Origin: an uncultured Gammaproteobacteria bacterium
GTDB lineage: Bacteria; Patescibacteriota; Microgenomatia; Levybacterales; GWA1-39-11
Reading direction: 5' to 3'
Assembly: GCA_964409875.1 (NCBI GenBank)
Contig: CAYPEN010000006.1
Coordinates: forward strand, 1-52,280
DNA: 52,280 bases
Position numbers and translations under genes: made by a program. Of the stretch, positions 17,674 through 25,210 are shown piece after piece (within the stretch, counting starts at the first letter, position 1; every line of letters begins with the position of its first letter). The notes below the pieces were generated by a model. That model was not told the DNA's origin. It worked only from the letters and a program-made list of their open reading frames with translations, and did not search any database.

Positions 17674-18125
17674 GTCCGTCCTCCGTTTGAAAGTTGATCG
17701 ACCACATCGTCCATCGTCTTGCACACGTAGACACCCTTGGTCCACCTGCACAGATTCTCGCCCGACACAATCTTCCGCCCCCGCAACAGCATGAGCGCCT
17801 GCGTGGGTTCCAGTAGTATATATTCCCGCCAGGTGAGAGGTCCAATAACACCCATTAACAGCCAACTACTCTGGTAAAAGCGCGTGTTGTGATGTGCCAA
17901 TAGCCAAGAGGCTTGGGACAAGGTGAATTCGCTGTGCGGGCTGTAAGGCTTGCCGGGGCGAGGATGATTACAGGTTTTAAGTTCTACCCACCCGCACCAA
18001 GGCTCCATGACGTACTCCACATCCGATACCCCGGCAACAGTGCTGGTCTCTATCCTCGTGAACAGGCCACGAGATTTGGTGGCCGCGTCCAGCTTGGCCC
18101 ATAGCTTGGCTTCGGTGTCAATCAT
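17670..18125 (-). CDS. PD-(D/E)xK nuclease (resolvase / VRR-NUC-like)
   Basis: E-x-x-LW...TRIET...GVSDV...WVELK...Q-x-x-W; ATGA-coupled to polA. Confidence 0.75.
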   Translation of the reverse strand: MIDTEAKLWAKLDAATKSRGLFTRIETSTVAGVSDVEYVMEPWCGWVELKTCNHPRPGKPYSPHSEFTLSQASWLLAHHNTRFYQSSWLLMGVIGPLTWREYILLEPTQALMLLRGRKIVSGENLCRWTKGVYVCKTMDDVVDQLSNGGRT

Positions 18126-20044
18126 TTGCACTCTCCCCAATTGGCTCCGGTGGACATGTCCACCAGCAACGGAACTCGCATCTTAACGCAGGTCTCCATG
18201 ATATGCTTGGCCTCGGCAAAGGCTTCCTCTGCCCGTGACGTTTGGTCATCGCTCCAGTCCAGTTCATCGTGCACGGTTAGGTGCGGGATGCCTGTGTAGG
18301 CAAAGACGCCGGATTGGTAACACTTCACCATGGCAGCTTTGATAATGTCAGCGGCGCTGCCTTGTAACAGTGCGTTGAGTGCGGTGTGTGCGGCAATACG
18401 TTCCCCGGTCTCCGGGTCCTGCTTAAAGCGTCTGCGGCGTTTTAGGATGGTGCGGATGAACCCGCGTCGCTGTGCAAGGCGCTGCGCATCGTTATAGGTC
18501 TTCTTGGCACTGGGCATGGCTTCAAAGTACGCGTTGTAGAGACGCTCACCCAGCTCCGCATCCACCCCCAGGCTGCGCACCAGTTTCTCTTTCCCCATGC
18601 CATACACCAGTCCGAAGTTCAGGTTCTTGGCCGGTGTGCGGTCCAACATGATGCCGGTGATCTCCCTGCACATCTCAATGGCCAGTTTGTGGAAGTCCGT
18701 GGTGGGATCATTGTTATACCGCTTGCGCAGCTCCTCTGACCCGTTGCCGACGGCGTAGTGCACTAGCGCACGGTACTCAACTTGCGAGTAGTCCGCACGC
18801 CGCCACTTGCATCCATCCTCCGGGATAAACAAGCCGCGCAGCAGCGGCCCCAGCACCTTGTGACGGCTGGGGATGTTTTGCAGGTTGGGGTTGGAGGAGC
18901 TGAAGCGCCCGGACACCGTACCGTAATCATCGCTTCGTAGGGAATTGAACTGGCAGTGGAGTCTGCCGTCCAGGTGGTTCTCCAAGATGTAACTCTCCAC
19001 GAATGGGTTGGCCGCCTTTTCGTATAACCGCACACCCAACACCTGCTCCGCCAGCGGATGGTCACAATTCTCTAACCACTGTTTGGTGAAGCTTGGGTTC
19101 CCCGCTTCCGTGCGGGTGTACTCCACCCCCGCGCGGTCAAACGCGTGCGCAATACTGGCGGCGCTCCACACATCCACCTCTTTAATCTGTTCCTGGAACT
19201 GCGTGGCCTGCTCGCGCAACCACCTGGCCGCTGCTTGCGCCCGCTGCACATCCACCCGCACACCACGAAACCGCATGTCGAGCAGAAGAGGGATCAGTGC
19301 GCACTCCATGCGAAACAGTTCTGTCAGCCCTTCCTCGTGCAACCTGGCGCGCTGTTCTTTGAGCACGCGCAACGGCAACAGCGCGTCGCTCTCTGCATAC
19401 GGTCCCACGAGCGATGGTGGTGCACGGTAGATGTTGGCGCGCTGCTTGCCGTCGACAGCTCCACCAAAGGAATCCGCGCACCACTGGTACAGGAGCGGGG
19501 TGTCTTTACCCTGTCCCAGATACTGCTGCGCCAGCACTTCGAGGGCGTAGCTTCGTGCCTGCTCATCCAGTAACGGCTCCGCCAGCTGGACGTCAAACAA
19601 CTCCCCCGTGGGCCGTGGCACCCCTTCCGCGCGCAACCACTCAAGGTCATACAGGAGGTTGGCCCCCACCACCGGCACACCGGTCGCTAGTTGTTCTCCC
19701 AGCCACGCAAAAGCCTTCTCCGCATCCTGGTTGAGTGGCTTCTCCCCTTCGTGCTCGTGGCGCAAGGGGAAGTACCAACCCCGGTCCTCGGTGGCAATGG
19801 AGAACCCCACCACGTGTCCGTCCTTGCGCACCCCACCCGGACCCTTCTCTATAAGGTTGGGGTCCTTGGTTTCCGTGTCCAGACCCAGCACCTTGGCACC
19901 GGCAAGGTTGGGGAACTCCGTGTGCGGGGTCCACCCCGTCACCGGCACGGCCACTTGCCGGTGGTAGTGGCTGACGCTGGCTTTGGCCATGCGCTGCACC
20001 GGGTAGTCCTGCCACCATAGCCCCACGGAGTCGAACCGTGTCAT
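18122..20044 (-). CDS. polA: Family A DNA polymerase with 3'-5' exonuclease
   Basis: Exo motifs LDTETK, NLLYDL, YAESDA; TVSGRFSSSNPNLQNIP, motif A DYSQVEYR, motif B AKNLNFGLVYG (Phe at the E. coli 762 position), motif C VHDE. Confidence 0.97.
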   Translation of the reverse strand: MTRFDSVGLWWQDYPVQRMAKASVSHYHRQVAVPVTGWTPHTEFPNLAGAKVLGLDTETKDPNLIEKGPGGVRKDGHVVGFSIATEDRGWYFPLRHEHEGEKPLNQDAEKAFAWLGEQLATGVPVVGANLLYDLEWLRAEGVPRPTGELFDVQLAEPLLDEQARSYALEVLAQQYLGQGKDTPLLYQWCADSFGGAVDGKQRANIYRAPPSLVGPYAESDALLPLRVLKEQRARLHEEGLTELFRMECALIPLLLDMRFRGVRVDVQRAQAAARWLREQATQFQEQIKEVDVWSAASIAHAFDRAGVEYTRTEAGNPSFTKQWLENCDHPLAEQVLGVRLYEKAANPFVESYILENHLDGRLHCQFNSLRSDDYGTVSGRFSSSNPNLQNIPSRHKVLGPLLRGLFIPEDGCKWRRADYSQVEYRALVHYAVGNGSEELRKRYNNDPTTDFHKLAIEMCREITGIMLDRTPAKNLNFGLVYGMGKEKLVRSLGVDAELGERLYNAYFEAMPSAKKTYNDAQRLAQRRGFIRTILKRRRRFKQDPETGERIAAHTALNALLQGSAADIIKAAMVKCYQSGVFAYTGIPHLTVHDELDWSDDQTSRAEEAFAEAKHIMETCVKMRVPLLVDMSTGANWGECK

Positions 20045-21009
20045 ACAGTAACCCCCACCACCACGCCAACCAACCCTTCCCCCTTGAAGGGTACGCGTGG
20101 GAACTTCGACCAGTCAGCCGCGTGGGCAGCGCCCAGCGCCAATAACAGGGGTGTTGCGTGGAACGCGCACTGGCCAAACTGCACCTCGAGGTCCGCCACC
20201 GTGGCCGAAACGGCACCGGCCAAGGTGCTGACGTCGGTGCCGGTTAGCAGCACAATGGGGTGCTTGGGGTCCGGACAGAACGGCTGCACCTGCTCCACCG
20301 CCTGCGCAACGCTGGGCGGGACCTTGGCGTACCTGGCACCGGCATGCAGCTCCTTGAGCAACTTGTCCATGTCTGGCCACGTGTCGGCAGGTACCAGCAC
20401 CGAGCGCAACCACACACCGTCCGGGAGCCAAATACCCACGGTGGTGTCAAGCAGCGCCATGGCCTGCGGCTCGGTGTCCAGGCGCAACAGCTCCTCCACC
20501 ATGTCGCACGGCAGCGCCGCCGTGGGCAGGGACACGGGGAGCGTGGCACGTACCACGATCACGTTGTTGCTGGCGTATGCGTACTTACCCTTGATCAATA
20601 TGCTGGTGCTCCACATGCGCTGCGCGTCGGTCCCCATGAACGGGCGCAGGGTGCGCAGCACGTGCAGCAGCCCCGGTGGGAGCTTGACCTTGTCCTTGGC
20701 CACCAGCGGCTCCAAGGGGAAGTCCTCGACCCTCCCCGCAGGGAGCGTGGCGCGGAACTTCCCCTGTCGCACCACCAGTGTCTGTTCCGCGTGCTCGAAG
20801 GTTGGCTCCTCCCCCTGACGCACGGCAGCCAGGAACTTGTCCAGTTCCACGGTAAAGGACAGCGCCTTGTCCACGGGGCACGGGGCACTGATATGCAATT
20901 GTCCGTTGAATGCGTGGAGCCGTTGCTTGTGCACGGCCACGTGGGTAAGCACCGGGACAAGGTCCTTGGTGCTGACAGCGCCTTTTACGATGTTGAGTGC
21001 GTTAAGCAT
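20041..21009 (-). CDS. DNA polymerase III beta-clamp-like protein
   Basis: 322 aa; MLNALNIVKGAVSTKDLVPVLTH...F-x-A-x-L...VEDFP, the N-terminal pattern of DnaN; directly upstream of polA. Confidence 0.65.
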   Translation of the reverse strand: MLNALNIVKGAVSTKDLVPVLTHVAVHKQRLHAFNGQLHISAPCPVDKALSFTVELDKFLAAVRQGEEPTFEHAEQTLVVRQGKFRATLPAGRVEDFPLEPLVAKDKVKLPPGLLHVLRTLRPFMGTDAQRMWSTSILIKGKYAYASNNVIVVRATLPVSLPTAALPCDMVEELLRLDTEPQAMALLDTTVGIWLPDGVWLRSVLVPADTWPDMDKLLKELHAGARYAKVPPSVAQAVEQVQPFCPDPKHPIVLLTGTDVSTLAGAVSATVADLEVQFGQCAFHATPLLLALGAAHAADWSKFPRVPFKGEGLVGVVVGVTV

Positions 21010-21905
21010 TAGGTGAGACTCAATTGGGAACCCACAAAGGTCTTGGCGGCAAATTGCTCCATGAGCTGGAAGGTGCGCGCGTTCACCACGTCACGGTAGG
21101 AGAAGTGGCTGGCGCACTGCTCGGCGGTCACCCCGGCTTCCGCAAGCCACGCATCCACCTGGATGCGCTGCACCGGGGTCAGCCGCTGGTAGTGCCATGA
21201 CTCCATGTCCTTGACCTTGGGGGAGTTGCTCGAGAACACCACCTTGCGCAAGCCCCTGGGTGTGATAAAGGCGCACGCACCAAACACCCCGGTCATGAGC
21301 CAACTCGTGCTGTCCACACTGAACCACGGGTAACGGAACATTAGCAATTGATCGGTGAGACCAAACCCATGGAGCTTGACGCGTGGCGTGCCGTCGCGCT
21401 TGGTCAGGAAGCGGGTCCACAGGTCATCCAGCCACCCGACTAGCCACTTGGTGGTCTCCGGAACCATGCCGCCGATAAAGATATAGTCGTGACCCTCATC
21501 CAGATACTTGACCAGCCACTTCGTATCCTCGCGTGCATGGAACACCGGCTGCACCTTGCAGCCAAGCTTGCGCAGCTCCGTGAAATACTCATAGGACTTC
21601 TCCGGGTCGCCAATGGCATCCAACGAACTGCACACCGTCCACACCGCCTTGGTCCGGTGCAGGAACTCCGCGTACCGCTCCACCGTGATGGTGGTCTTCT
21701 GGGTAAAGGCGGTGAACGCACCGCTGTCCAGGAACAGGTCCAGACCCATCTCTGCGCACTCCCGCGCGTCGCGCGACAGGGTGTTGCCGTCCAGGAACCC
21801 GTGGTAGTAGTAGGTGAACAGCCGCCGCTGCACGTTCTTAATCCACGCAGCCGCCTTGCCTTGGGACTCTACCGCATTGCGCTCCCCGGCCAGGTACACC
21901 TTCAT
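21009..21905 (-). CDS. dpdA: DpdA, TGT-fold DNA 7-deazaguanine transglycosylase
   Basis: ATG at 21905; LFLDSGAFTAF, SLDAIGD, PVFH, YIFIGG, KLHGFG, YPWFSVDSTSW; co-transcribed with que genes. Confidence 0.85.
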   Translation of the reverse strand: MKVYLAGERNAVESQGKAAAWIKNVQRRLFTYYYHGFLDGNTLSRDARECAEMGLDLFLDSGAFTAFTQKTTITVERYAEFLHRTKAVWTVCSSLDAIGDPEKSYEYFTELRKLGCKVQPVFHAREDTKWLVKYLDEGHDYIFIGGMVPETTKWLVGWLDDLWTRFLTKRDGTPRVKLHGFGLTDQLLMFRYPWFSVDSTSWLMTGVFGACAFITPRGLRKVVFSSNSPKVKDMESWHYQRLTPVQRIQVDAWLAEAGVTAEQCASHFSYRDVVNARTFQLMEQFAAKTFVGSQLSLT

Positions 21906-22336
21906 GGCAGCGAGTCCAGGACAATGGGGTGCATGCCATGGTGGCGCTTCATCCATTGCGCCTGGAAACCAAGGGACGGACGCGGCAGGTCGCCAAAGGC
22001 CCACTCAATCCCCGGCCAGTTTTCAAATGGCGCGAAGTACCGGCGGGGTGTCACAAACAGCAGGGAGTCCACCGTCTTGCGGTGCTTGTCTATCTGACCA
22101 AAGACCTTCTTTACCCACGCGTCGTCTGCGCGTGCGCCAATGGTCTGGTCATAGGGTGCAATCACCGCCTGCGGGGAGATGAGGCCATAGCGGGCGCTTA
22201 GGATAAACCACGGGTTCCCCGTGCTGACAGCAAATCGCTTGGCCATCTGAAACAGCTTCCCCGTGTACATGTGCTGCGCCTCGCACATGCTGCTCCGCTT
22301 GTCCTTGCCGCAGGAAATCACAACACCGGTGGTCAT
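21902..22336 (-). CDS. DUF6884-like protein with Cys motif, inside the deazaguanine operon
   Basis: VISCGKDK...A-x-x-MYTG-x-LF...[23 protein letters not shown]; ATGA-coupled to folE and dpdA. Confidence 0.7.
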
Positions 22337-23229
22337 CGCACCATCCTCAGAAACTCGGCGCGCGCTGCCGGGTCGTCCAGGAACGCACCTAGCAGACATG
22401 ACGTGGTGGTGCTGGACCCCTGCGCCCGCACACCACGGGACTCCATGCACAAGTGACGACACTCCAGCATCACGCCGACCCCGATGGGGTGCAGTGCGTT
22501 GGCCAGCGCATGCGCAATCTGCTTGGTCATGCGCTCCTGCACCTGCAAGCGCCGCGCGTACACGTTTACCAGCCTTGCAAACTTGGACAACCCCAGCACC
22601 TTGCCGTGCGGGATATACGCCACGTGCGCCACGCCAAAGAACGGTGCCAAGTGGTGCTCGCAGTGGGAGTACACCGGGATGTCTTTCACCAGCACCATCT
22701 CGTTGTACTCCTCCGCGCCGTCTTCAAAGCACTTGAGCAGGTCCGCGGGTTCCTGGCTGTAGCCTTCCGTGTATTGTCCCCACGCCTTAATGAACCTGCG
22801 CGGTGTGTCCACCAGCCCTTCCCGCTTGGGGTCCTCGCCGATGTACTGGAGGAGCCGGGTGGGGATGTCCTCGGCACTCCCGCCTGCGTTTCCCTCCCAC
22901 GGAAACACCAGCCAGTCGGCAGGGTTCTCCCACAGGGCGAAGAACGGCGTACTGGGGTAGCGCACCTTGTACCTGGCGCGCGTGGCTCCGCTGTCTATGA
23001 TGTCATCCACAAAGTAGTGCGCCTGACTGGGTGTGTCCACAACCTGTCCCTTTAGGATGAACTGCGACACCAAGTACGCGGCAGGAACGCCACCTCGAGG
23101 CACACCGTAGATATTAATGTGGTCGGACTCAAAATGCCCGGTGTCGGCCCAGTGGCGTTGGATCTGCCCAGCCACACGTCCCGCCGCAAACTGCACCTCG
23201 TTCTGGCGCAGAATGACCTTGTTCTTCAT
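22333..23229 (-). CDS. folE: Fusion of a type I phosphoribosyltransferase-like domain and GTP cyclohydrolase I
   Basis: N-part: [26 protein letters not shown]-part: [31 protein letters not shown]-x-[21 protein letters not shown]. Confidence 0.92.
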
Positions 23230-23885
23230 TGCATGTACTCCAGCGGGTCCTTGATACCGTTGGCGGCGAAGCCTTCCAGGCGCTCCTGACAGCTCCCGCA
23301 CACTCCGCACGCCTTGTCCAAGCCCTTGTAACAGGTCCAGGACTTGGCGTAGTCCAATCCCAGCGCCTTGCCGCGCGCAATAATCTCGACCTTGGTTTCG
23401 TTCAAGTATGGTGCACACACCTGCACCGGTTGCCAGTTGGCAATCTTGGCCACTTGGTTCATGAGGTCGATAAATTCAGGTCGGCAGTCGGGATAGATAG
23501 TGTGATCGCCTGCGTGCACACCGCACGCCACCCGATCCAGGTTGTTGGACACGGCGTAGGCTATGGCAACGGACAACATGATCATGTTCCGGTTAGGGAC
23601 CACGGTGAGCTTCATATTGTCTGCCGCATAGTGGCCCTCCGGGACCGGGGTGTCCCCGGTAAGGGCTGAGCGCGTCATGGCGATTCCCGCAATCGTGCGC
23701 ATATTCACCACGTGCGCGGGAACGCCCAGCTCGTGGCACACTCGCTTGGCGTACTCCAGCTCCTTGGCATGGCGCTGACCGTAGTCAAACAGCAGGCAGG
23801 AATGCAGGAATCCCGTTTCGTGCAGCTCGTTCACCAACGTGAACGAGTCCATGCCGCCGGAGTAAATTGCAACTGTGTCTTTCAT
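23226..23885 (-). CDS. queC: 7-cyano-7-deazaguanine synthase QueC
   Basis: SGGMDS, FDYGQRH-x-x-[20 protein letters not shown]...[10 protein letters not shown]; no glutamine amidotransferase fusion. Confidence 0.97.
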
Positions 23886-24595
23886 GGCAGTCCTATGATC
23901 TTGTGTTGTTGAAGGGAGAGTCTGTAGCCGTGGCGCATGCACAGGTCCACGCACCGCGCGATGGCGGCTTGCGTGGCGTCCTTGTCGGCTCCATGGTCCA
24001 TGGGTTGCAGCCACACCTTGTAGTGCATGGCCGGGTGGCCGGGTGGCCGCGCAAGCACCACCTTGCGTCCGTGCTCCTGCGTTGAGGACAGCGGCAGACC
24101 ATCCACGGGGTCAATCTGCGTGTCGGCACCCACCAGGTACTTCCAGCAGATGGCGTCATTCTCCACGATCGCATTCACGTGCGCGGTCTTGGGCGACACC
24201 ACAATCTGCGTCCCCAGCGGCAGTTCCTCCAAGGGCGCAAAGCTACCCGCCGTTTCGATCTGCACTTGCCGGTGGCCACGCTGCACAAGGCGGATGAATG
24301 GGGTCACATTCTGACGCAACGGTTCCCCGCCCGTGATCACCACCAGCGAATATTGCTTGATGGGGTATTGGAACACCTGCGCGGCAAGGGTTTCTATGTC
24401 CACAACTTTACGCTTGCTGGTAAAGTCCGTGTCACAGAAATAGCACTTGAGGTGGCACCCGGCCAAGCGCACAAAGACGGCAGGGACCCCGGCATGGGGT
24501 CCCTCCCCTTGGATGGTAGGGAACACCTCCACCACGTCCAGGGACAACCCATCGTGCCCTTTGAGCAGGGGTTCGGTTTCATTTTTACCGAACAT
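23882..24595 (-). CDS. queE: 7-carboxy-7-deazaguanine synthase QueE (radical SAM)
   Basis: EVFPTIQGEG-x-x-AGVPAVFVRLAGCHLKCYFCDT, TGGEPL, IETAG, VSPK, LQP, RLSLQQHK. Confidence 0.96.
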   Translation of the reverse strand: MFGKNETEPLLKGHDGLSLDVVEVFPTIQGEGPHAGVPAVFVRLAGCHLKCYFCDTDFTSKRKVVDIETLAAQVFQYPIKQYSLVVITGGEPLRQNVTPFIRLVQRGHRQVQIETAGSFAPLEELPLGTQIVVSPKTAHVNAIVENDAICWKYLVGADTQIDPVDGLPLSSTQEHGRKVVLARPPGHPAMHYKVWLQPMDHGADKDATQAAIARCVDLCMRHGYRLSLQQHKIIGLP

Positions 24596-24776
24596 GCTTA
24601 TCGTCCTCCAGTGCCGGGATGCGCAGGGGTGGTAGTTCGTTTGTATCGAACACCTCCTCCACCCACCGCTGGGTGCACTCTCGCAAAATGTCCACGTTGT
24701 CGGGAGACTGGTTAAGCGCCGCCTCCAAGTGCGCATCCGTATAGGCCCGGAATAGACGGCCACTGCTATCGCTCAT
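24585..24776 (-). CDS. Hypothetical protein within the que cluster
   Basis: 63 aa, ATGA-coupled to queD. Confidence 0.6.
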   Translation of the reverse strand: MSDSSGRLFRAYTDAHLEAALNQSPDNVDILRECTQRWVEEVFDTNELPPLRIPALEDDKHVR

Positions 24777-25210
24777 AAGACATGTGCTCCTTCGTAGTTC
24801 TCCGCTGTTGCACTACACTTGCGCGTCTCTTCGACAATCACTTCGACCAGATACACCTCCCGGGGAAGCACTTGGGGTCCCACCACCCGGAGCAGGTACT
24901 CTGCCATGTTCTCTGCCGTTGGGTTGAACGGCACCACGGCAATCCCTTGGGGATCTACCAACTTTAAGATGTTGAACCACGGGTCGTCCATGTACATCAG
25001 GAACCGGTGGTCCCAGTTAACCTCGAGCCACGAGCACAGACGGTCCTTGATGGCGGTAAAGTCCAGCACCCGGCCCACATCGTCCAGTTGCTTGGTGGTG
25101 ATGGTAAAGTGCACACGGTAGTTGTGGCCGTGCAGGTGTGCGCACTTGCTTTCGTGTCCAAACACACGGTGACCGGCGCTGAAGTCGTGGTACCTGGTTG
25201 CGGTGATCAT
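24773..25210 (-). CDS. queD: 6-carboxy-5,6,7,8-tetrahydropterin synthase QueD
   Basis: FSAGHR...C-x-x-LHGHNY, LDF, WDHRFL, PTAENMA, EET. Confidence 0.95.
   Translation of the reverse strand: MITATRYHDFSAGHRVFGHESKCAHLHGHNYRVHFTITTKQLDDVGRVLDFTAIKDRLCSWLEVNWDHRFLMYMDDPWFNILKLVDPQGIAVVPFNPTAENMAEYLLRVVGPQVLPREVYLVEVIVEETRKCSATAENYEGAHVL

Follow-up and report, generated by a model that had tools for sequence, protein, structure and literature searches.

Why would a GTP cyclohydrolase I (FolE) encoded in a phage-type cluster for 7-deazaguanine modification of DNA carry a second, phosphoribosyltransferase (PRT) domain at its N-terminus? The question is posed by one gene in a 52,280-nucleotide stretch of DNA (hereafter, the window; GenBank assembly GCA_964409875.1, contig CAYPEN010000006.1, positions 1–52,280), deposited under an uncultured Gammaproteobacteria bacterium. 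The gene (22333–23229; minus strand, as are all features of the window described below) encodes 298 residues plus a stop codon, with no internal stops, and comprises a minimal type I PRT domain (residues 1–113, 22891–23229) followed by a type IA FolE domain (residues 115–298, 22336–22887). By sequence and predicted fold, the N-terminal domain is a type I PRT whose closest relative is xanthine-guanine phosphoribosyltransferase (XGPRT). For its role we tentatively propose, from sequence and structural models, a guanine sink and salvage enzyme for the by-product of the DpdA-type DNA guanine transglycosylase encoded nearby. A first-pass annotation, made from the DNA letters alone, had read the gene as a fusion of an XGPRT-like PRT with FolE; the profile, structure and cut-off comparisons described below bear this out.

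The N-terminal domain has diverged too far for direct family assignment, and a profile and a structural model were therefore needed. As a single sequence it gave weak matches to a xanthine PRT model of NCBIfam (E 0.0015) and to the PDB (E 0.07), and a few of its homologues have a precomputed match to PF00156. A profile of 43 homologous N-terminal domains matched the Yersinia and Escherichia coli XGPRTs from end to end (E 1.6e-8). The AlphaFold model of residues 1–118 (pLDDT 94.8) is predicted to have the five-stranded α/β core of the PRT fold. Its best Foldseek matches in the PDB were XGPRTs 4jls and 1a95 (Yersinia and E. coli; E 4e-6, TM-scores 0.64–0.68), followed by a Pyrococcus purine PRT, Sulfolobus HGXPRT and HGPRTs, and all 42 PDB matches at E ≤ 0.001 were PRT-fold structures, nearly all of them purine PRTs.

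Alignment with XGPRT located the three motifs that the first-pass annotation had quoted: (i) the pyrophosphate (PPi)-binding loop GVPRGG (residues 42–47, 23089–23106) aligns with SRGG of XGPRT; (ii) the motif binding phosphoribosyl pyrophosphate (PRPP), which contains Asp79 (residues 71–83, 22981–23019; the PRPP loop itself at residues 74–83), aligns with IVIDDLVDTGGT of XGPRT; and (iii) WLVFPWE (residues 106–112, 22894–22914), which includes the quoted FPWE and consists of a stacking Trp with an acidic residue six positions further, aligns with TWIEQPWD of XGPRT. A VVDTPSQ segment (region of residues 64–70, 23020–23040), with the consensus VVDxPxxAD, occupies the place of the flexible loop. 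Among 123 homologues (34–67% identity to the window protein), no substitution occurs at P44, R45, G46, G47, D75, D76, T83, W106, P110 or W111, and conservation is at least 97% at D79, S80, G81, F109 and E112 (D79 in 121 of 123; S80 and G81 at least 98%), with E or D at residue 112 in all 123. These residues make up the PPi loop, the acidic pair for Mg and ribose, the 5'-phosphate loop, and the stacking aromatic residue with its acidic partner six residues later. Such conservation is far beyond chance and, as a pattern in the alignment, indicates selection on a working ligand site. The short segment at the place of the flexible loop is also conserved (V64 in 94, P67 in 103 and A70 in 119 of the 123). 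The Asp at the end of DDxxD is typical of 6-oxopurine PRTs and not of adenine, uracil or orotate PRTs.

The FolE half is, as judged from its sequence, an intact and ordinary GTP cyclohydrolase I. Residues 124–297 match PF01227 (GTP_cyclohydroI) with an E-value of 1.6e-70 and 236.6 bits (cut-off 27), and the scores of the half lie above the NCBIfam cut-offs of NF006825 (240.9 bits; 174) and TIGR00063 (218.8 bits; 181.6). It contains the zinc and catalytic motif CEHH (residues 190–193, 22651–22662), and the second zinc-binding Cys lies in RHLC (residues 258–261); C190, E191, H192, H193, R258, H259 and C261 are all present and nearly invariant among the homologues. The residues R145, K148, S215, K216, R219 and R265, which we take from alignment with E. 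coli FolE to hold the triphosphate, are conserved as well. In the full-length AlphaFold model (pLDDT 96.3, pTM 0.85), the C-terminal 185 residues superpose on the Thermus, human and Mycobacterium FolE structures with TM-scores of about 0.9 and about 50% identity (T. thermophilus FolE 1wm9 by Foldseek: TM-score 0.93, rmsd 1.7, 50% identity). The zinc, catalytic and triphosphate-binding residues of type IA FolE (1wm9) are thus all in the window protein, which differs from every solved FolE in its N-terminal PRT domain; in the Foldseek search with the full-length model, in which about 185 of the 298 columns align, no solved structure covered the N-terminal part. For the FolE of phage 9g, which is without the additional domain, the conversion of GTP to dihydroneopterin triphosphate has been examined by assay or folE complementation (PMC6884629).

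The fusion is real and widespread. A search for the combined architecture (tblastn) found the full-length fusion in at least 34 phage records. The N-domain profile retrieved 80 IMG/VR loci, of which 78 encode PRT and FolE in a single open reading frame (ORF), 1 (L035) has them as adjacent genes and 1 is cut. Four contigs encode exactly the window protein, and conservation extends to the junction residues S118, A119, D121, I122, P123 and R125. A sequencing or assembly artefact at the junction, which the first-pass annotation had named as a possibility to be checked around 22870–22900, is ruled out by these loci, isolate records, identical contigs and conserved residues; the junction is continuous in relatives. 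The carriers include Pseudomonas phages NP1, PaMx25, JG012 and JG054, Vibrio phages VpKK5 and 1.207.B, and Stenotrophomonas, Xanthomonas, Variovorax and Sphingomonas phages, and in phage records every fusion bears the plain annotation GTP cyclohydrolase. A large protein collection yielded more than 120 distinct clusters of 290–320 residues, matched at full coverage, and a profile search of 1.84 billion representatives returned 829 proteins at E ≤ 1e-10, which comprise fusions of about 300 residues, shorter proteins and fusions of about 583 residues. The longest class (P0188, P0240 and P0260; locus L009, 6992–8740) carries an HNH-endonuclease intein, which is inserted near position 70 of the Pfam model for FolE. 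In the 80 loci, DpdA was detected in 70, QueE in 76, QueD in 73 and QueC in 66, and QueC is long and Gat-QueC-like in 12 of these 66. The occurrence of the PRT domain with both plain QueC and Gat-QueC points to a role independent of the final modification.

PRT–FolE fusions also occur in chromosomes of Dehalococcoidia/Tepidiformaceae metagenome-assembled genomes, away from Que and DpdA genes (L095, 6920–7837; L088, 6896–7804; L090, 6836–7843). The L095 copy has CEKH and NYLC in place of CEHH and RHLC and keeps the PRT motifs; on these substitutions, its FolE half may no longer be a GTP cyclohydrolase.

Relatives of the domain are also encoded as separate genes, and the homology of the fused domain to these stand-alone PRTs is clear from profile comparison (hhalign probability 99.2%, E 2e-19). 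A separate PRT gene adjoins FolE in loci L003 and L035, in Flavobacterium phage immuto_2-6A and in Brevundimonas phage MaInes. In immuto_2-6A, a 131-residue “phosphoribosyl transferase” (gp211; L007, 11896–12291) is encoded directly upstream of FolE in the deazaguanine cluster; in MaInes, FolE is directly followed by a 161-residue “xanthine phosphoribosyltransferase” (L098, 7001–7486) beside genes for ribonucleotide reductase (RNR) and a deoxynucleoside monophosphate (dNMP) kinase, with QueC, QueD and QueE further along. On a 97-kb metagenomic contig, a 156-residue PRT gene immediately precedes FolE within a QueE-QueD-PRT-FolE-TGT-like series (TGT, tRNA-guanine transglycosylase). In Cellulophaga phage phiST (CGPG_00045; L097, 6989–7417) and in 15 Campylobacter CP220-type phage records (CP220: L100, 5992–6405), the homologue lies elsewhere in the genome, so that the stand-alone PRT adjoins FolE in 2 of the 4 groups examined (Flavobacterium and Brevundimonas).

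The stand-alone PRTs of CP220, phiST, immuto_2-6A and MaInes belong to one PHROG, phrog_8995. Cui et al. 2023 (PMC10516641) name CP220, phiST and immuto_2-6A as the three phages in which G is completely replaced, and a phrog_8995 PRT is thus encoded by all three known phages of this kind; experimental validation of their DpdA3 was not achieved in E. coli (PMC10516641). The phrog_8995 PRTs share with the fused domain the WIVFPWE ending and the occurrence in phages with 7-deazaguanine pathways. They differ in being separate genes that accompany DpdA3 in complete-replacement phages, whereas the fusion accompanies DpdA1-like genes, and the window domain does not reach the phrog_8995 model.

Comparison with XGPRT (E. 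coli and Yersinia pestis; 1a95, 4jls and 6kp5) shows which elements the fused domain has retained. The two share the α/β core, the RGG of the PPi loop, the DDxxD[ST]GxT motif, and the stacking Trp with the acidic residue six positions on. By contrast, XGPRT has 152 residues and the domain 113–118; the domain is fused to FolE and is without the flexible loop and most of the hood, and its window copy is also without the Lys that reads O6 of the base. The loss is graded across the phage relatives: the MaInes and phiST PRTs keep both loop and hood, the immuto PRT has the hood alone, the loop region of the CP220 PRT is much shortened, the fused NP1 protein has a hood stub, and the window protein has neither. 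From this series, the fused domain looks like the reduced end of a set of phage XGPRT-like enzymes.

What could a PRT do in this pathway? DpdA-type enzymes insert a free 7-deazaguanine base into DNA in exchange for guanine, which is released, and FolE uses up GTP. For TGT-type enzymes, guanine itself is a substrate of the exchange half-reaction, as in tRNA-guanine transglycosylase exchange assays. The substrate, catalytic competence and physiological role that we infer for the domain are as follows. The C-terminal FolE would commit GTP to the synthesis of preQ0, together with QueD, QueE and QueC encoded alongside, and the N-terminal domain, as a minimal 6-oxopurine (XGPRT)-type PRT, would bind PRPP-Mg and a purine base. 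When a phage modifies at least a quarter of its G, GTP would be drained and the cell flooded with guanine. The PRT domain would turn the free guanine expelled by DpdA into GMP, which would remove the competitor of the 7-deazaguanine base in the second half-reaction, and host Gmk and Ndk would return the GMP to the GTP pool on which FolE draws. The base excised from DNA would in this way become the precursor of the base inserted.

Several observations support such a salvage role, which the first-pass annotation had also proposed as a loop. The nearest relatives of the domain in both sequence and structure are xanthine-guanine PRTs; the domain goes with DpdA, the releaser of guanine, in 70 of the 80 loci; and, among the split, stand-alone relatives, some have the XGPRT loop and hood in full. 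The complete-replacement phages, which have homologous PRTs, would release the most guanine, and a PRT that consumed preQ0 would presumably compete with DpdA for its substrate. The loop is the most economical explanation and fits the near-universal co-occurrence with DpdA; the missing loop and hood, the missing Lys and the existence of modified phages without the domain count against it, so that the proposal stands in part.

These and other observations weigh against the salvage role. The phages 9g, CAjan and iggy replace 16–32% of G (PMC10484667) without a PRT domain, which indicates that the domain is not required for DpdA1-type modification. We found no PRT domain in Pseudomonas phage iggy, and no Escherichia phage among the full-length or N-domain matches, though 41 Escherichia records have FolE. 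The N-terminal domain alone had no match in Pfam or PHROGs, with none to PF00156 at E ≤ 0.1, and its score against the NCBIfam XPRT model NF006613 was 18.1 bits, below the cut-off of 138. The flexible catalytic loop (loop II) is absent, which amounts to about 17–20 residues in comparison with XGPRT and the phiST and MaInes PRTs, and alignment shows about 14–17 residues of the hood, most of it, to be absent as well; in HGPRTs, loss of the loop cuts kcat by orders of magnitude. At the position aligned with the O6-reading Lys (FAKPAG in XGPRT), the window protein has Asn and its closest relatives have Pro; Lys or Arg stands there in 88 of the 123 homologues. Hosts possess purine PRTs of their own. 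Finally, GMP is not a substrate of FolE, and together with the retained triphosphate-binding residues this leaves the fusion to FolE, and not to DpdA, unexplained by channelling. Direct use by FolE of the GMP made by the PRT, a conceivable short-cut, was considered and is unsupported, the residues that presumably hold the triphosphate being conserved.

Another explanation, which draws on the lost loop and hood, the variability of the Lys and a strict association of the domain with FolE instead of DpdA, is that the PRT domain is non-catalytic and acts as a ligand-binding module that tunes FolE, with PRPP, GMP/GTP, guanine or (p)ppGpp as the signal. We regard this as a credible though doubtful alternative. 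Parallels would be PurR and PyrR, two regulators with the PRT fold, and, at the level of function, GFRP, which controls mammalian GTP cyclohydrolase I and whose complexes show FolE decamers to be controlled through accessory proteins. The parts lost, loop and hood, serve catalysis and enclosure of the base, whereas the residues binding nucleotide and PRPP are kept and a conserved short motif, VVDxPxxAD, has taken the place of the loop. The domain pairs always with FolE and not with DpdA, fused or as a neighbour and in either order, and the pTM of 0.85 of the full-length model suggests that it is packed in a fixed position on the first helix of FolE. A ppGpp-bound PRT-like protein (5vog) is also among the Foldseek matches. 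However, the catalytic Asp79 of the 6-oxopurine type and the acidic pair D75/D76 are essentially invariant, and some stand-alone relatives with full loop and hood look like working enzymes. It appears very unlikely that the domain is an appendage that serves structure or assembly and has no role depending on a ligand, for example a docking platform for DpdA or Que proteins or the relic of an enzyme. Its much reduced size and scores below family thresholds would suit an appendage, as would some Dehalococcoidia copies in which FolE has lost catalytic residues and the architecture persists without canonical chemistry; a scaffold would not be expected to keep exactly the PRPP, PPi and Mg residues unchanged among the 123 sequences.

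A different chemistry, in which the domain, like its stand-alone relatives, would transfer the phosphoribosyl group of PRPP to a 7-deazaguanine base (7-carboxy-7-deazaguanine (CDG), ADG, preQ0 or a derivative) and so open a nucleotide-level branch, for incorporation during replication or for another purpose, seems improbable. Its model is TubE of tubercidin biosynthesis (ToyH in that of toyocamycin), a purine-PRT homologue encoded with FolE, QueD and QueE that uses CDG and PRPP (PMC6112128) and thus acts, as the domain would, within a 7-deazapurine pathway; we liken the two by description. TubE differs in belonging to actinomycete secondary metabolism, in being unfused to FolE, in having CDG as substrate and in having no DNA transglycosylase partner. 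Further points in favour are that phrog_8995 occurs in CP220, phiST and immuto_2-6A, complete-replacement phages whose DpdA3 is unvalidated, that the ADG nucleoside has been reported from CP220-infected cells (both PMC10516641), and that the MaInes PRT lies within an RNR-dNMP kinase-FolE-PRT block. Set against this, DpdA was detected in 70 of the 80 fusion loci, and DpdA1-type enzymes are proven post-replicative inserters of free bases (PMC6884629). The domain is present whatever the type of QueC, and the conserved Asp79 usually contacts N7, which is absent from deazapurines. In the window we found no homologue of the MaInes or phiST RNR genes, the MaInes dNMP kinase or the immuto thymidylate kinase. 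The first-pass annotation had raised a nucleotide route into DNA through PolA; for the window this route is unsupported: no RNR or dNMP kinase homologue was found there, DpdA is present, and the adjacency of PolA is that of a standard replication module. The more general idea, by analogy, that fused and stand-alone PRTs make a 7-deazaguanine nucleotide, and that some phage 7-deazaguanine DNA is made, or helped, via the nucleotide pool, we likewise consider a long shot.

The fusion gene belongs to an operon of closely packed genes. QueD, of the PTPS family (24773–25210; PF01242, E 2.6e-27), is followed by a QueE-like radical SAM enzyme (23882–24595), which has a weak Pfam match to Radical_SAM/Fer4_12 and matches the QueE genes of related loci, and by a QueC of 219 residues without a Gat domain (23226–23885; PF06508, E 3.5e-60). 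Downstream of the fusion gene are a DUF6884 gene (21902–22336; PF21818, E 7e-26; phrog_5935), the DpdA-type DNA guanine transglycosylase (21009–21905; phrog_887 “queuine tRNA-ribosyltransferase”, E 1.3e-46), a sliding-clamp-like gene (20041–21009) and PolA (18122–20044). The DpdA-type gene is homologous to the “tRNA ribotransferase” gene of NP1 and to the DpdA gene of the 70 related loci. The ATG of the fusion gene overlaps the stop codon of QueC (ATGA), the stop codon of the fusion gene overlaps the ATG of the next gene, and ATGA or single-base overlaps run throughout the seven genes from QueE to PolA (18122–24595). This run implies translational coupling of DNA-modification and replication genes. 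The gene order is that of NP1 and Vibrio phage 1.207.B, both Queuovirinae, and identifies a 7-deazaguanine cluster, and PolA and the clamp are the usual neighbours of DpdA in related loci of this phage group. A megablast search with 8 kb of the locus matched no phage record at the nucleotide level. Neither QueF nor ArcS was seen near the window QueC; with a plain QueC and neither of these genes nearby, published rules predict that the modification of this phage is dPreQ0.

The DUF6884 gene lies between FolE and DpdA and is ATGA-coupled on both sides; its family, phrog_5935, is of unknown function, and it has a faint YaaA-like match. DUF6884 is found inside 3 of the 80 related deazaguanine clusters (L008, 3836–4324; L018, 7660–8310; L032, 5276–5701). 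A sequence search of the PDB gave no match for the DUF6884 protein or for the DpdA-like protein. The DpdA-matching ORF has 650–850 residues, instead of about 300, in L011 (7867–10407) and L025 (7498–9468), which suggests an extra domain or an intein. In NP1, a homing endonuclease gene (L001, 6851–7294) lies between PRT–FolE and DpdA.

Both folds and the pathway are already known; what is new is the PRT–FolE architecture and its recurrent gene association. The Gat-QueC of 9g-type clusters is likewise a fusion within this phage pathway and one that alters its product, but it concerns another enzyme and step and, unlike PRT–FolE, has been characterised. Neither a PRT nor a FolE fusion is mentioned in Hutinet 2019, Cui 2023 or the iggy paper, and within the literature searched a single paper names both “DpdA” and “phosphoribosyltransferase”, on actinomycete gene clusters (Crippen et al. 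2019, on CP220, was outside the coverage). The first-pass annotation had known of no characterisation of the fusion, and the literature searched agrees, with no PRT linked to phage DpdA systems.

The pathway of the literature comprises FolE, QueD, QueE and QueC together with DpdA, and the XGPRT-like PRT adds a sixth recurring component, which is fused to FolE in a large siphovirus clade and encoded separately in those phages of Campylobacter, Cellulophaga, Flavobacterium and Brevundimonas that were examined. The same fusion is present in the cultivable phages NP1, PaMx25 and VpKK5. If the domain is regulatory, it would represent a new way to control GTP cyclohydrolase I. Ribosylation of a deazapurine, if true, would be the most consequential outcome and would reopen the question of a nucleotide-level route, and a route through the nucleotide pool would contradict the view currently proposed, in which every such modification is post-replicative. 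If the domain salvages guanine, it would complete a cycle that turns the excised base into the precursor of the base inserted, and it would also remove the competitor in the exchange; this would help to account for the replacement of up to 100% of G without exhaustion of GTP.

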